Assembly: GCA_004524535.1 (NCBI GenBank)
Contig: SDNY01000009.1
Location: 1-49,284 of the forward strand
Reading direction: 5' to 3'
DNA length: 49,284 nt
Origin: Promethearchaeota archaeon
GTDB taxonomy: Archaea; Asgardarchaeota; Lokiarchaeia; Sigyniarchaeales; SOKP01
A model generated the notes under the pieces. That model was not told the DNA's origin. It searched no databases and saw nothing but the letters and a program-made list of their open reading frames with translations. Within the stretch, counting starts at the first letter, position 1. Each line of letters opens with the position of its first letter. This document shows positions 1-5,259 of the stretch, piece after piece. Position numbers and translations under genes: made by a program.

Positions 1-1139
1 ACATTCATGAAATAATAGACGCAATTTAAGGGGTCATTTAAAATATATTTTTTTTCAAGAATTGATTTTCTAGAAGGGCTTATTATCCCAATCCTTTGGA
101 TCATTTCAATTAAATTCTTAAATTCTTGAAGATTTTTCTCATATTCTAGTGATTCACATGAGACATCGAATAATTCTTTTAGTTCTTTTGAAGTAATATA
201 ATAATTATATTTATTTATAAATTGGTTAGATAAATTGTCTAGGAAAATTATGGTTAAAAGATCTTCTTCAGAAATGTAGGTAAGCATGCTAAACTCGTCA
301 ATACCTCCAGAAGGTTCAAATTGATTCTGACTTATTTCCAATAATTCGGATTGTTTAATTACATTTTGTTCTTTAAGAATTGGATAAATATCTCGTAATA
401 TCTCCACACCTTTTCCAGGAACGGGGACATAATTTTCAAAGATTAGATCAGTAATAAATTCAATTAACTCTTTATCAATTTCATGTAAGAAAGTCAAAGA
501 GAATCTTTGCTGTAAAATTGAAAAAAGCTCATTATAGCTAAAATAGTTTAATTTCTGTTTTTGATCGAATTCTGATAATATGTCTAAACTCGAAGCTCGC
601 AAAACCATATTTATTGTTGATATTATTGTTGTTTTCGTTTCCTTTGAATAATTCAAGAATTTTTTAAGAAGTTCAGGTTTTAAATGCTCAACGTTGTTAA
701 AGATTAAAAAGAGATACTTATTTAATTTATGAAGTTTTTCACATCCGTGCTTAAATGAATTCCACAATGTTTTTGGATTGAGAATAGAATTGAGGTTAAA
801 ATCAAGATCTTGGAATTTATTCATCTCAATTAATACAGAGCCAATTAATTCTTCTGGATTTTTTTCTTTGCAATCAATTTTAATTGTTCGAAAAGAATCT
901 GGATTCTCATTTTCTAATTGCAAATCTTCTAGAACTTTATTTACAATTACTTTTTTGCCAATTCCTTGAATTCCTTGATATATTATATTTAGGGAATACT
1001 TATCGTAAAGAGAATCTCTTAAAATTGAATGTAATGATTGTTGTTCTTTTTTTCTATGCAATAATTGAGGTGGAACATAGTTTACATCAAATATCGCTCG
1101 AGGGCCAACATATATATTATAATTTGGTTTACATATCAT
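1..1139 (-). CDS. Orc1/Cdc6-like AAA+ protein with degenerate Walker motifs (3' end runs off the window)
   Basis: Not in the ORF track. Manual translation from ATG at 1139 is open to base 1 (379 full codons): MICKPNYNIYVGPRAIFDVNYVPPQLLHRKKEQQSL (Cdc6 N-terminal 'F..dYvP..L.HR' motif), Walker A-like NIIYQGIQGIGKK, Walker B-like LFLIFNNVEHL, 'YFSYNELFSILQQR', and a C-terminal winged helix ITSKELKELFDVSCESLEY...FKNLIEMIQRIGII. Confidence 0.85.
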   Translation of the reverse strand, partial: MICKPNYNIYVGPRAIFDVNYVPPQLLHRKKEQQSLHSILRDSLYDKYSLNIIYQGIQGIGKKVIVNKVLEDLQLENENPDSFRTIKIDCKEKNPEELIGSVLIEMNKFQDLDFNLNSILNPKTLWNSFKHGCEKLHKLNKYLFLIFNNVEHLKPELLKKFLNYSKETKTTIISTINMVLRASSLDILSEFDQKQKLNYFSYNELFSILQQRFSLTFLHEIDKELIEFITDLIFENYVPVPGKGVEILRDIYPILKEQNVIKQSELLEISQNQFEPSGGIDEFSMLTYISEEDLLTIIFLDNLSNQFINKYNYYITSKELKELFDVSCESLEYEKNLQEFKNLIEMIQRIGIISPSRKSILEKKYILNDPLNCVYYFMN

Positions 1140-1240: not shown

Positions 1241-2191
1241 TTAATGGAAGTTTTCCAGTAAATTTTTTATATTATTAGCTAAAATTGGAAGATATTCATA
1301 AGATCTAGCTTTTATTTTCTTATTAAGGCAGAGAGAGATCAAATATAATCTTTCATTCTTAACATCCAATTTTCTTAGAAAAATTATTCCTTCCTTTTCA
1401 TTTTCAGAATCCTCGTGCGAAAATTCAATATTAGTAACGATATCTAAAGTATTAATACCCCATTCTTCTAATTTTTCTAAAGTATAGGCGAGCCGAGGTG
1501 CAATTGAGTCGCAAATCTGTTGATAAGATTCTTTTGTAGATCTACTTGCGATTATAAATGAGTGTTGATCCAATAAAACTGCGGCCGATGAGTAGGTTGT
1601 TTTAGTATATTCTTTTAGAAGGTTTTGTATTAATTTTGATCTTTGGGTTATAGAAATAGCTCCGTCAGAAAATGCTCTAATCAGAGTTGATTCATCATAA
1701 ATTGTAGTTTCATAGAAAGAAAAATTAATATTTTGATTAATATCTTTTATTTCCTTTTCAAGAAAATTGATATTATTCATGATGTCGTTTTTATTTTTTA
1801 TATCAGGATCGTTCTTATGAAAGAGAATGAGAAATTGAGTAAAATCAGGATTAATCTCTAGAACCACGTTAACAATTTCTTTTAAATAATTTAGTGCTTC
1901 TTCAAATCTCTCTTTATTTTGAAGATCAATTATATAAAAAAATGATTGTAAATAAGAGAAATATTTACTTTTATGTTCTAGATATGTTTTTCTATAGCTA
2001 ACTTGGCCCCCTAAATCCCAGTTGGAGATCTCTAAGCCTAGCAATGAGATCTTCTGGGTTACTACTTTTGATTTGATTGTAGGTTTTAAAGAGGGCAATA
2101 AACTAAACCTTTTATTTAATAACAATAATATTGATGTTTTACCAGCAGCGTCTAAACCTGCGAATATAATTTTTGATTTGGTTTCAGAAAT
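1241..2191 (-). CDS. Rag/Gtr-like (Arf superfamily) small GTPase with C-terminal roadblock/longin-like domain
   Basis: The frame extends 22 codons upstream of the track start (2125) to ATT at 2191, adding KIIFAGLDAAGKTS (G1). G3 WDLGGQ, G4 LFHKND, G5 FYETTIYDE. The ~130-aa C-terminal domain has the 'SAAVLLDQHSFIIAS' roadblock-like hairpin. Confidence 0.88.
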   Translation of the reverse strand: MSETKSKIIFAGLDAAGKTSILLLLNKRFSLLPSLKPTIKSKVVTQKISLLGLEISNWDLGGQVSYRKTYLEHKSKYFSYLQSFFYIIDLQNKERFEEALNYLKEIVNVVLEINPDFTQFLILFHKNDPDIKNKNDIMNNINFLEKEIKDINQNINFSFYETTIYDESTLIRAFSDGAISITQRSKLIQNLLKEYTKTTYSSAAVLLDQHSFIIASRSTKESYQQICDSIAPRLAYTLEKLEEWGINTLDIVTNIEFSHEDSENEKEGIIFLRKLDVKNERLYLISLCLNKKIKARSYEYLPILANNIKNLLENFH

Positions 2192-2223
2192 CCCTGATCA
2201 CCACTATTTCAATATAATATATT

Positions 2224-3036
2224 TTATTTATTTATTACATTGATTTTAATATTATTTTTTTCAATTTTTTCATTAAAACGAATTTTTCTAATTTTTTTTG
2301 GGAATTTTAAATCAATATCGTCAAAAATATAACCAGAATCCTTCGGTCCCTCAACTATTTTTAATTTTGAAGGAGAAATAAAATTTTTTACAAAAGATAT
2401 AATTTTACTATTGCCAAGAAATCTTCTCTTATTGAAACTTCCCACTGAATTACAGGCGATAATTGGTATCCTATTTTCAAGGGCACGGGCTTGAAGATAA
2501 ATCTTCCAATTATACATTCCTTCTTCCCTTATTTGAGTTGGTGAAAACAAGACATCAGCGCCATTCTCAGCAGCTAACCGAGGAGTCTCAAAAAAAGCCA
2601 TATCAAAACATATTAAAATAGCAAAAAAGTATTCGTTAAAGGAAAATAAATTGAGTTCATTTCCAGGTTCGAATTGTCCTTTTTCATAACTATATAAATG
2701 TATTTTATCCTGCCGACCAACTTCTTCGCCTTTTTCATTAATAAAATAAGAAGTAATTGTTGGTTTTCTTGAATTTTTTCTTTTTTCCCAAATCGCCCCT
2801 GAAATAATATTTATTTGATATTCACCTGCTATAGTTTTAATAAAAGAATAATTTTCTCCTCTTTCTTTTTGAATATTTTGGGAAATATCATTTAAAAGAG
2901 GAACCCATCTTTCTGGTAAACATATAATGTCAATTTTAGCTACTTGATCAATTAACATCTTCAATAAATATTCAATCTCAGAGTAGCATTTCTTTATACT
3001 TTGATGAATTTTTGGTTGAATACATGCAATTATCAT
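2224..3036 (-). CDS. Carbon-nitrogen hydrolase (nitrilase/amidase superfamily)
   Basis: Glu-Lys-Cys triad motifs CLPE, QDKIHL, LICFD; also ARALEN and FLGNSKI. Confidence 0.92.
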   Translation of the reverse strand: MIIACIQPKIHQSIKKCYSEIEYLLKMLIDQVAKIDIICLPERWVPLLNDISQNIQKERGENYSFIKTIAGEYQINIISGAIWEKRKNSRKPTITSYFINEKGEEVGRQDKIHLYSYEKGQFEPGNELNLFSFNEYFFAILICFDMAFFETPRLAAENGADVLFSPTQIREEGMYNWKIYLQARALENRIPIIACNSVGSFNKRRFLGNSKIISFVKNFISPSKLKIVEGPKDSGYIFDDIDLKFPKKIRKIRFNEKIEKNNIKINVINK

Positions 3037-3057
3037 GTAAAATAATCTTTATATAAT

Positions 3058-3804
3058 TTAATTATTATTAATTTCGTCTATTATATTAAAAAGTTCATTT
3101 AAATTAGAAATTTCATAATCGGGTTTAGTTTCGTGCGGTATTTTGACACCTGTTTTATAAGAATCATACTTTCCCCCTCTGTGAATATATACGCTATGAA
3201 TGTTATTTAAAAGAGCTGGAATAATATCCTTATCAATTCTATCGCCGACATAGATACATTCTGGCCCTTTTATACCAAATTTTTTTAAACAATGATCAAA
3301 AAGTTGGGGATTAGGCTTTCTTACTCCGATCTCATCTGAAATTACGGTTAAATCTATTAAATCATCTATGCCTAATCTTAAAATTTTTTCATATTGTTTA
3401 ATTGGAAGCCCGTCGGTTATAATTGCTGTTTTAATAGACATCTCGTTTAACTTTTTTAAACATGGTTCTACGTCATCATACAATTTAATAGAATTAATTT
3501 TCTCACCGTGATAAGCCATTACTGCGGCAGATATAAATTTAAATTGATAAGAATATGAGATTGGTTCTGCTATTTCCTCAAGGCGATTATATCTTCGAAT
3601 GAAATAATTATAATGTTTAGAGGAATTAGACCCATACTCCTTAACAATCTCTTGAATAATTTTTATAGCTTTTTCTCGATCAATTTTTAAACCTAATTCA
3701 ATCATAGCTTCTATGCCTTTAATTCTAGCTCTTTCAGATAATCCAGTAGAATCAAAGAGACAGTCATCCAGATCGAATCCTACGAGTTTTATTTTTGGGG
3801 TCAT
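3058..3804 (-). CDS. HAD-superfamily hydrolase (archaeal subfamily IA)
   Basis: Motif I FDLDDCL, motif II IITDG, motif III RKPNP, motif IV YVGDRIDKDI. Confidence 0.93.
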   Translation of the reverse strand: MTPKIKLVGFDLDDCLFDSTGLSERARIKGIEAMIELGLKIDREKAIKIIQEIVKEYGSNSSKHYNYFIRRYNRLEEIAEPISYSYQFKFISAAVMAYHGEKINSIKLYDDVEPCLKKLNEMSIKTAIITDGLPIKQYEKILRLGIDDLIDLTVISDEIGVRKPNPQLFDHCLKKFGIKGPECIYVGDRIDKDIIPALLNNIHSVYIHRGGKYDSYKTGVKIPHETKPDYEISNLNELFNIIDEINNN

Positions 3805-3984
3805 ATTTTTAAAAATAATAACAATTTAATAATACATTTCAATTCTTTTAATTACAAACTTATCTTTGATAAGACGTTTTGATAACATAAATTTATTTAT
3901 TTTTAAAACTATATAATCTTTAATATTAACTTATGATAACCATAAGCATATTAAAAAGAATTTCAGTGTATTTTTAAGAAGATA

Positions 3985-5259
3985 ATGGAGAATTCATATC
4001 TGGACACAATTGTAGCGCTTAGCTATTTTCATAGAAAAATAGGACCTCTAGTATTTTATTCTTATCCTGAAAGCATATTAGATAATGATTTATCTGTTAG
4101 AATAGCGAATATTATGGATCAGACATTTAATGAAGGTTTTTTTACACATTCATTTGAAAATTTAAATAGTATGAATTATTATTTCGAAATTCATTCAGAT
4201 TGGGCACGTGGAAATAAAGAAATGCTAATGATTTCGATTATTTTTAAACAACAAACCTTTCCGGAGATGGAACAAAATGTTTCGGCCCTATCTAAGGAAT
4301 TTTCCGAAAGATTACAAGAAAATGATGAGATTTTTACCGCTTTTTATATTAATGACCTTAATAATTTTGAGGAAAATGATCGTGACAGCATTATTAAAAA
4401 TTATTCTTTAATACTGCTATGGGTTAAGGAATTATATTGGCAAACTATGGAAGAAACTCGAGAAAAGACAGAAGAAGAAAAAATTGCTTATTTATTAAAT
4501 AAAAAACACATATTTTTAACTCTAGGAAAATTATCAAAAGGCCCAATACCTTTAGAAGATTTAGAAGGATGGTTCACTGAAAATTTTCCTGAAATAGATT
4601 TTAATATAATGGTTGATAAATTAATCGAAAAACAATTAATATTTATAAATCAAATTGGATTAGTGGAAAAATATGTACTCTTATTAAAAGAGGTAAATGC
4701 TGAAAGAATACCTCCTGATAGTGTAATTGAATATATTGATGAGAGCCCTGAATTAATTGAATTATTACTCTCGAAAGTTAAAGAATATTTTAGTATTCAT
4801 GAAAATAAAACGGAGGAAGAACTTAAAGAAGACTCATTTACTCTTTTTCAAATAATTTCAGATATTAAAATGTATAATATTCTTTCTGAATTAAGAGCTG
4901 GTTTAATTCGTAGAGATGAGTTGTCAAGTTTAGTCTCAAAGAAAACACTCGACTCTTTAAATGAAATAATAGATTATTTAAAAAAAGTTGACATTATTGA
5001 AGAATTAATATTCGAAGATGAAAAATATATTGTTTTAAAGACAAATTTACAAATAAGTACCTCTTTTCCAAAATATTTAAGGAAGTTATTACCCAGAGAG
5101 GTCAAACCGGTTATTGCAGATAAATATAATCCAAGATTAGCAGAGCTTTTCAAAGATGTAAGGGATAAAGGTTTTATTAAAACGAGTACAGCAAAAATAA
5201 ATAGATTCCTAGGAGATTTATCTTCAGGAGATAAAAAAAAAGATTCTATAAAAAAATAA
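3985..5259 (+). CDS. Longin/uDENN-like domain protein with tandem C-terminal winged helices (NPRL2/folliculin-like)
   Basis: N-terminus LSYFHRKIGPLVFYSYP resembles NPRL2 FSEFHPTLGPKITYQVP; YYFEIHSDWARGNKEMLMISII resembles folliculin HTFFIKDSLARGFQRWYSI; two WH-like repeats end in KLIEKQLIF and YLKKVDIIE. Confidence 0.7.
   Translation: MENSYLDTIVALSYFHRKIGPLVFYSYPESILDNDLSVRIANIMDQTFNEGFFTHSFENLNSMNYYFEIHSDWARGNKEMLMISIIFKQQTFPEMEQNVSALSKEFSERLQENDEIFTAFYINDLNNFEENDRDSIIKNYSLILLWVKELYWQTMEETREKTEEEKIAYLLNKKHIFLTLGKLSKGPIPLEDLEGWFTENFPEIDFNIMVDKLIEKQLIFINQIGLVEKYVLLLKEVNAERIPPDSVIEYIDESPELIELLLSKVKEYFSIHENKTEEELKEDSFTLFQIISDIKMYNILSELRAGLIRRDELSSLVSKKTLDSLNEIIDYLKKVDIIEELIFEDEKYIVLKTNLQISTSFPKYLRKLLPREVKPVIADKYNPRLAELFKDVRDKGFIKTSTAKINRFLGDLSSGDKKKDSIKK

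Follow-up and report, generated by a model that had tools for sequence, protein, structure and literature searches.

The window analysed here, the whole 49,284-nucleotide contig SDNY01000009.1 (contig C22 of the genome that we label G000), belongs to a Loki-type Asgard archaeon with a 3.66 Mb genome that is 99% complete. In a region of about 26% G+C it carries a gene for a Rag-type GTPase, RagX, and, facing the operon of that gene across a short spacer, a gene for a longin-domain protein, LP. An earlier note on this DNA had proposed that the two encode a GTPase and its cognate GTPase-activating protein (GAP). It had placed the GTPase third in a minus-strand run that begins with a HAD phosphatase and a carbon–nitrogen (C–N) hydrolase and ends with a Cdc6-like protein, and had separated this run from a longin-domain gene by a divergent spacer of 180 bp; each of these elements was recovered at its position (Table 1). 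Here we describe the folds and motifs of both proteins and an orthologous linkage of their genes that dates from the ancestor of the order, and we weigh the proposal that LP may switch off RagX through an arginine finger.

Table 1. Features of the LP–RagX locus, in positions of the window
Feature	Positions	Strand	Basis
LP, 424 residues: longin, two winged helices, disordered basic tail	3985..5259	+	predicted fold
LP longin domain, residues 8–158	4006..4458	+	model secondary structure; VIA alignments
LP GP motif, Gly20-Pro21, start of strand β2	4042..4047	+	32-orthologue alignment
LP Arg75 codon, candidate arginine finger, β4/β5 loop	4207..4209	+	alignment; model
LP winged-helix domains, residues 163–242 and 277–360	4471..5064	+	model; VIA
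RagX, Rag-type GTPase, 316 residues	1241..2191, stop codon included	-	Pfam Gtr1_RagA
GGTGAT, Shine–Dalgarno-like, 6 nt upstream of RagX ATT	2197..2202	-	sequence read
AT-rich divergent intergenic spacer, 180 bp, between HAD operon and LP	3805..3984	.	sequence read
HAD-IA phosphatase, TIGR02253 subfamily, 248 residues, first of run	3058..3804	-	Pfam Hydrolase 1.3e-23; TIGR02253
C–N hydrolase (nitrilase superfamily), 270 residues, second of run	2224..3036	-	Pfam CN_hydrolase 4.3e-28
Divergent AAA+ gene of Orc1/Cdc6 type, downstream of RagX, truncated by window start	3..1139	-	TIGR02928 E 1e-13, below cut-off

LP has no significant match in Pfam (to E ≤ 0.1), in NCBIfam or among PDB sequences, and is assigned by its predicted fold. 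The AlphaFold model, with a predicted local distance difference test (pLDDT) score of 82.5 overall and about 90 over the longin domain, runs through residues 8–158 in the longin order β-β-α-β-β-β-α-α; Gly20-Pro21 opens strand β2 and Arg75 lies in the loop between β4 and β5. The best ten matches in a Foldseek search of the PDB were chains of the GATOR1, SEAC or FLCN–FNIP2 complexes (E from 1e-5 to 9e-4), with GATOR1 chains ranking first (E from 1e-5 to 1e-4). Structural comparison with VIA gave its highest scores to FLCN (Z = 13.8 for 8dhb_J, with a root mean squared deviation of 2.8 over 138 residues; 13.1 for 6nzd_H; and 12.8), alongside the Lokiarchaeota longin 8yqg_B (Z = 12.9) and two groups of chains that we take, from chain length, to be NPRL3 (Z = 12.4–12.7) and NPRL2 (about 320–402 residues; Z = 10.4–12.5 over 183–197 residues). 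Alignments to FLCN, NPRL2/3, Lst4 and SMCR8 span LP residues ~5–160, those to the NPRL2-length chains (9o5d_D, 9v0j_A, 8adl_S, 7t3a_B and 6ces_N, from GATOR1/SEAC entries) reaching the first winged helix at ~230. The longins of SNARE, adaptin and TRAPP proteins score Z = 9–10, and DENND1 and Fuzzy–Inturned chains 8.5–9.4.

Across 32 LP orthologues, 32–82% identical to the window protein, 17 alignment columns are invariant, among them Phe15, Gly20, Pro21, Ala74, Arg75 and Gly76, and the 'ARG' motif that had been read in the longin gene is Ala74-Arg75-Gly76, present in all 32. A GP motif at this place is described in FLCN, NPRL2, SMCR8 and C9orf72 and as absent from non-GAP longins; it sits just before or at strand β2, spatially beside the arginine finger, and occurs together with the Arg motif in Asgard longins (PMC12290439; this paper, PMC9834061, PMC10933270 and the preprint 10.1101/2020.10.19.343400 are cited throughout from the portions of their text available to us). 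LP fits this published description of GP-motif, NPRL2-like Asgard longins. The identification of the divergent neighbour of the operon as a GAP-type longin of the NPRL2/FLCN kind stands on the fold matches together with the invariant GP and Arg75; as a longin call it is confirmed by predicted fold and fold searches and gains no support from sequence profiles. Two side observations concern the protein itself. Eight of the 32 orthologues have a weak, sub-threshold match to Pfam Afi1 (PF07792; best E = 0.038), which Pfam describes as the domain by which Afi1 docks to Arf3 in vesicle trafficking. On the metagenomic contig closest to the window, LP is represented by two overlapping open reading frames (ORFs) of 344 and 94 residues (L049:235-1550, minus strand), through a frameshift or an assembly error.

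RagX, for its part, scores 96 bits on Pfam Gtr1_RagA (PF04670), for which the cut-off is 22 (E = 3e-27), and the match covers profile positions 1–226 of 232. A G domain occupies residues ~1–180 and a roadblock domain residues ~181–316 at the C terminus. The G1 (GLDxAGKT/S), G3 (WDLGGQ) and G4 (HKxD) motifs show no variation in any of the 12 orthologues aligned, HKxD being typical of Rag proteins. In the model (pLDDT 82.4) the C-terminal half follows the order α-β-β-α-β-β-β-α, and the best VIA match is the Lokiarchaeota RagA-like protein LokiRagO (8yl2_B; Z = 27.9 over 280 residues, both domains included); RagA, RagC, Gtr1 and Gtr2 follow at Z = 25–26.4 over 278–291 residues. Pfam, motifs, model and VIA agree on a complete Rag architecture of G domain plus roadblock, which bears out the Rag-like label of the earlier note. 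There is no second Rag gene in the locus, and on that ground RagX is assumed to form a homodimer.

The start of RagX is unusual. No ATG, GTG or TTG precedes the P-loop in its frame; the earliest canonical start is a TTG at 2125, the use of which would remove the P-loop. The start coordinate, 2191, is that of an ATT (2191–2189) placed 6 nt behind GGTGAT, and a TGA stop closely precedes them. This TGA and the GGTGAT-N6-ATT arrangement (L049, ~3370–3383) recur before an 80%-identical metagenomic copy of RagX, and the ratio of non-synonymous to synonymous substitution rates (dN/dS) between the two copies is 0.16, indicating purifying selection; orthologues in another genus begin with ATG. A pseudogene, suggested by the lack of a canonical start, was rejected on the dN/dS value and the conserved GGTGAT-N6-ATT, and we read RagX as a probably live gene with a non-canonical ATT start.

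Conservation of the linkage among relatives, whose absence the earlier note had named among the outcomes that would count against its proposal, was assessed in 61 genomes of the order, the source genome included. LP is matched at E ≤ 1e-10 in every one of the 61, and 55 of them have a near-full-length orthologue (E ≤ 1e-63); no orthologue at E ≤ 1e-25 was found in 123 genomes of the phylum sampled outside the order. A RagX orthologue, counted where the match was either full-length with E ≤ 1e-47 or partial but situated at the locus, occurs in 26 genomes, and the linkage holds in 23 of them, with RagX and LP on the same contig within 2 kb; two further genomes have the genes at the ends of different short contigs, and one (G028) has RagX elsewhere. 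Direct inspection of 38 orthologous LP loci found RagX present in 15, absent from 22 and cut off by a contig end in one. A second scan, in which a species-level genome collection overlapping the order sample was searched with the RagX alignment, yielded 32 loci with a RagX orthologue: LP lies within 2 kb in 25 of them, three are cut by a contig end and four lack LP. Two of these four copies (L080:4842-5855 and L086:5001-5810) lie beside Cdc6 and lack their first 31–46 residues, P-loop included; separated from LP, HAD and C–N hydrolase, they look like decaying remnants. The trio of LP, RagX and HAD is also carried by the genome record of Candidatus Lokiarchaeum ossiferum (L089).

The LP-adjacent GTPases form one clade against 12 Rag-like paralogues (Shimodaira–Hasegawa-like approximate likelihood ratio test (SH-aLRT) support 95.9, in a tree whose paralogues all come from the source genome), and branching within the clade follows the four families of the order, f1 to f4. 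Gene order varies between these families. In f1 and f3 the operon reads RagX, C–N hydrolase, HAD, with LP divergent from HAD, and f2 has RagX and HAD divergent from LP. In f4, either HAD and RagX or RagX alone precede a divergent LP, with spacers of 165–380 bp and HAD beyond RagX or absent, and Cdc6, the winged helix-turn-helix (wHTH) gene, DUF2095 and L15e are no longer near LP. RagX, where present, is the sole gene that lies beside LP in all four families, and HAD is the most persistent LP neighbour (within ~2.5 kb in 36 of the 38 inspected loci). The persistence of RagX beside LP across rearranged families, with HAD second, argues for a functional tie among the three over slow decay of gene order, on the basis of few independent events in related genomes. 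The LP–RagX linkage is not due to chance: it spans four families of the order and has outlasted the reshuffling of the operon.

This association is particular to one orthogroup. No LP-type longin was found in the flanks of other Rag-like genes in the species-level collection (0 of 48 loci), nor beside distant full-length Rag-like genes such as those of Helarchaeota records, and a general rule that LP-type longins co-locate with Rag-like genes was accordingly rejected. Within the source genome, two of the six LP-type longin genes lie within 2 kb of a Rag-like gene (P(≥2) = 0.006 under random placement); one of the two is the LP–RagX pair itself, and the corresponding P(≥1) = 0.10 is weak support.

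The remaining genes of the run are closely packed, with gaps of 21 nt between HAD and C–N hydrolase, 32 nt between C–N hydrolase and GTPase and 101 nt between GTPase and the Orc1/Cdc6-like gene. The HAD protein reaches 189.7 bits against the TIGR02253 cut-off of 169.75 (NCBIfam); for the C–N hydrolase, no NCBIfam equivalog reached its cut-off. The latter is found at the locus in f1, f3 and some of f2 and is absent in f4, and the suggestion that amidase and phosphatase supply a metabolite input to the switch is conjecture. The Orc1/Cdc6-like gene is syntenic in f1 only. A perfect 6-3-6 palindrome, CTTATCTTTGATAAG, lies inside the divergent spacer at 3859–3873; as a candidate conserved operator it was rejected, being absent from all orthologous loci examined.

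LP and RagX both belong to expanded families. The source genome has 34 PF04670 matches, about 12 of them strong, and all six of its genes that match the LP longin profile have GP and ARG. One relative is a 471-residue protein (G000:C51:69445-70857; L138:3446-4858, minus strand) in which a more divergent N-terminal longin with GP and ARGN motifs is fused to a Gtr1_RagA domain (1.8e-25). Its GTPase is sister to the RagX clade in the tree (support 83), its longin aligns with that of LP GP to GP and ARGN to ARGN, and residues 79–140 give a sub-threshold hit to Pfam Folliculin. This longin–Rag fusion lends 'Rosetta stone' support to the pairing of LP with RagX. Across the order, paralogues of ~480–510 residues with full-length alignment to RagX are common.

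Other fusions join LP-type longins to different GTPases. In two of the six source-genome proteins with the LP longin profile, each of ~338 residues (G000:C52:34585-37725, L050; G000:C121:24618-25640, L051), the GP/ARG longin continues into an Arf-like GTPase domain of divergent sequence. Convergent with the C52 gene, at a distance of 0.9 kb, is a gene for a 408-residue Rag-like protein, which is followed by a gene with a HATPase_c domain. At G000:C161:2495-4519 (L139), a 343-residue protein with a more divergent GP/QRG longin and a Ras-family GTPase is encoded divergently, at ~230 bp, from a 256-residue ORF. That ORF is the sole hit of the source genome to NPR2 (PF06218), sub-threshold at 18.4 bits and in the post-longin part of the model. 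Among 30 LP-longin homologues from a wider database, five are fused to GTPase domains (four Arf, one Ras) and five have PAS domains, two of the latter being Arf-fused as well and four of the five also having a histidine-kinase ATPase domain. GP and xRG are kept in 20 of 20 aligned distant homologues. This repeated coupling of the LP family to small GTPases supports a GTPase-directed function, not a specifically Rag-directed one.

Two source-genome proteins, of 375 residues (C140; G000:C140:19709-20836, L054:8679-9803, minus strand) and 372 residues (C53; G000:C53:9337-10452, L055:4001-5116, plus strand), share the double winged-helix module of LP (hhalign probability 98%, E = 2e-13); their N termini have GT in place of GP and no ARG, which makes them candidates for NPRL3-like silent partners of LP. 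The C140 gene lies 3.7 kb from a Rag-like GTPase gene. A search with PF12257 (Iml1) gave no hit, and its controls were likewise silent. A second LP paralogue of the genus (G000:C172:3796-4713, L028; G041:C28, L027:7001-8140; 64–65% identity) has GP and ARG intact and none of the LP neighbours around it, the source-genome copy being cut by a contig end. Elsewhere among the Asgard lineages, L092, L093, L095, L097 and L128 hold tandem same-strand pairs of full-length Rag-like genes; they recall the Rag-like operon pair of MK-D1, described as a possible heterodimer (PMC10933270).

We propose, with a probability of roughly one half, that LP is a longin of the GAP type whose cognate client, or one of several, is RagX, on which it acts through Arg75, and that LP is co-regulated with the operon of HAD, C–N hydrolase and RagX. 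The shared divergent promoter region would allow LP to be co-expressed with that operon. RagX would cycle between GTP and GDP, probably as a dimer formed through its roadblock domains, and the longin domain of LP would dock on the GTP-bound form. The GP loop may then shape a pocket from which Arg75 could reach the nucleotide and complete catalysis with Gln63 of RagX, turning RagX off. The acidic winged helices may serve as a protein–protein scaffold, as in NPRL2/NPRL3, and might pair LP with a catalytically silent paralogue. The structural reading of RagX and LP is well supported and their functional pairing plausible; binding, GAP activity, dimer states and physiological input and output are what we infer. 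Nothing at the locus speaks to nutrient sensing, and the framing of the pair as nutrient signalling finds no support here.

Several observations weigh against this proposal. LP matches neither Pfam NPR2 (PF06218) nor Folliculin (PF11704), and none of its 32 orthologues hits NPR2 at E ≤ 1 or matches Folliculin. Membership of GATOR1/FLCN, as the locus had been labelled, is not borne out at the sequence level; no DENN domain was found, nor DEPDC5 in a search whose controls were silent. The VIA margin of GAP-type over generic longins is about 3 Z units. In Npr2 the loop arginine, Arg84, is directly followed by an auxiliary asparagine, N85 (PMC12999518); in LP the residue after Arg75 is the invariant Gly76, and an asparagine stands at +2 in 19 of 32 orthologues. 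NPRL2-like longins that bear the GP and Arg motifs have already been published from Asgard archaea. The profile match between the longins of the C51 fusion and LP is weak (hhalign probability 12%), the sister position of its GTPase has 83% support, and most GTPases found in fusions with LP-type longins belong to the Arf or Ras families rather than to Rag. The f1 block is wholly syntenic (Cdc6, RagX, C–N hydrolase and HAD on one side of the spacer; LP, wHTH, DUF2095, (PGDH) and L15e on the other), so part of the linkage is plain inheritance, and related genomes are not independent. The ATT start could mean that RagX is expressed at a low level in the source genome.

A further point against it is the distribution of RagX. 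Thirty-five of the 61 genomes have paralogue-level hits only and no RagX orthologue, and in them LP keeps GP and Arg75. RagX is missing even from G041, a 98% complete genome and the only other one of the same genus, in which HAD, C–N hydrolase and LP stay and tblastn detected no GTPase remnant. Since LP retains its motifs where RagX is missing, it must serve a different client or function; genomes can do without RagX, and the pairing of the two is not an obligate one.

The alternative that survives best starts from this distribution: LP would be a GAP-type longin with other small-GTPase clients, whether Rag-like paralogues or Arf- or Rab-like proteins, and its adjacency to RagX would be inherited synteny. 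The source genome offers many possible clients among its PF04670 proteins, LP-type longins are fused to Arf and Ras domains, and the f1 block is just such a stretch of synteny. Against it, the rearrangements in f4 removed all other neighbours and left RagX beside LP, intact copies of RagX hardly ever occur apart from LP (of the four that do stand apart, two are truncated), and none of the 48 other Rag-like loci scanned has an LP-type longin nearby. We consider this account rather unlikely as a replacement for a RagX-directed GAP.

Less probable still is a non-catalytic role, in which LP would contact RagX or further GTPases as a platform, an effector or an exchange factor, with Arg75 in a structural or binding role. 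Most longin and roadblock proteins work in this way, among them TRAPP, Mon1–Ccz1, DENN proteins and Ragulator. The longin fold is common to exchange-factor platforms, the DENND1 and Fuzzy–Inturned chains appear among the VIA matches, and LP lacks at +1 the auxiliary asparagine that Npr2 has there. What makes this improbable is that the GP motif is reported in GAP longins and as absent from non-GAP longins in the available text of PMC12290439, that GP and Arg75 are invariant in LP orthologues, with GP and xRG persisting in the distant homologues, and that the top structural matches of LP are longins of GAP complexes.

A regulator that divergently adjoins its target is a classic prokaryotic arrangement, and LP might by analogy be a winged-helix transcription factor whose longin senses a ligand or GTPase and which regulates the divergent HAD operon: its two wHTH domains match ArsR/HxlR/PerR-type regulators (VIA Z = 8–9), one database source names a homologue as an ArsR-family regulator, and LP is divergent from HAD, or co-directional with it in genus g9, in 36 of 38 loci; yet its winged helices are acidic (median isoelectric points 5.0 and 5.4) with no conserved basic residue in the candidate recognition helices, C-terminal domains of this kind mediate protein contacts in NPRL2/NPRL3, NPRL2 alignments enter the first LP winged helix and the spacer palindrome is not conserved, all of which makes this reading very improbable.

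Among known systems, the closest parallel to LP acting on RagX is NPRL2/Npr2 acting on RagA/B or Gtr1 in GATOR1/SEACIT. Both longin proteins have an N-terminal longin with a GP motif and a loop arginine, followed by winged-helix-type domains, and the client of NPRL2, like the one proposed for LP, is a GTPase of Rag architecture; the arginine finger of NPRL2 is Arg78. LP differs in a structural identity of 11–14%, in lacking a Pfam NPR2 match and in the glycine that replaces asparagine after the arginine, and the LP and RagX genes adjoin in a prokaryotic locus in which the GTPase is often absent. Folliculin–FNIP (Lst7–Lst4), acting on RagC/D (Gtr2), supplies the highest-scoring longin, but in FLCN the longin is followed by a DENN domain and in LP by two winged helices, and the FLCN alignments end at LP residue ~160. 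LokiRagO (PDB 8yl2) is 30% identical to RagX, as a paralogue or a distant orthologue; our literature search found no paper describing LokiRagO or LokiRagM.

The bacterial GAP MglB is a homodimer of roadblock subunits and is not known to have an arginine finger like that of NPRL2 or FLCN. LP, in contrast, combines a longin fold with GP and Arg motifs, and its GTPase neighbour RagX itself contains a roadblock domain. MglB–MglA nevertheless resembles LP–RagX in being a prokaryotic GAP of the roadblock/longin superfamily encoded beside its small GTPase (PMC10933270). The published Asgard NPRL2-like, GP-motif longins share GP and Arg with LP and, like LP, have relatives fused to two-component and GTPase domains (10.1101/2020.10.19.343400; PMC12290439).

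Small GTPases number in the dozens in Asgard genomes, as do longin and roadblock proteins. A preprint (Liu et al., 10.1101/2020.10.19.343400) has described NPRL2-like longins of Asgard archaea, together with their two-component fusions and how abundant they are in Loki lineages, and their expansion in Lokiarchaeia has been described elsewhere (PMC9834061). In the available portions of these and related sources, most eukaryotic signature genes are reported to lie outside conserved neighbourhoods and Asgard archaea to be without a TOR kinase domain (Liu et al., 10.1101/2020.10.19.343400); small-GTPase genes of MK-D1 are said, as a rule, not to share operons with genes for longin or roadblock proteins, so that the two are hard to match (PMC10933270); and the client of GP-motif Asgard longins, Arf-like or Rag-like, is posed as an open question (PMC12290439). 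The earlier note had known of no linked functional pair, and a full-text literature search, which did not cover supplementary tables, likewise found none reported and no account of a conserved LP–RagX–HAD neighbourhood. What the present locus adds is a specific candidate client, RagX, HAD as a third persistent partner, a cultured organism with the trio, the ATT start and a longin–Rag fusion paralogue.

One Rag orthogroup is kept beside one NPRL2-like protein across an order, and the pair therefore offers a concrete enzyme–substrate hypothesis. Tentatively, and with less confidence than we place in the proposal that LP acts on RagX, LP, RagX and HAD might be seen as an ancestral, minimal, TOR-independent Rag switch of Lokiarchaeia: a divergent, co-regulated unit in which an arginine-finger GAP would act on one dedicated Rag, a possible forerunner of GATOR1–Rag and FLCN–Rag, with the longin–Rag fusion as the same module in cis. 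If LP does not act on RagX, the locus amounts to ordinary synteny around a protein of a class that has been described before; if it does, the relationship between longin GAPs and Rag GTPases would predate both eukaryotes and TOR.

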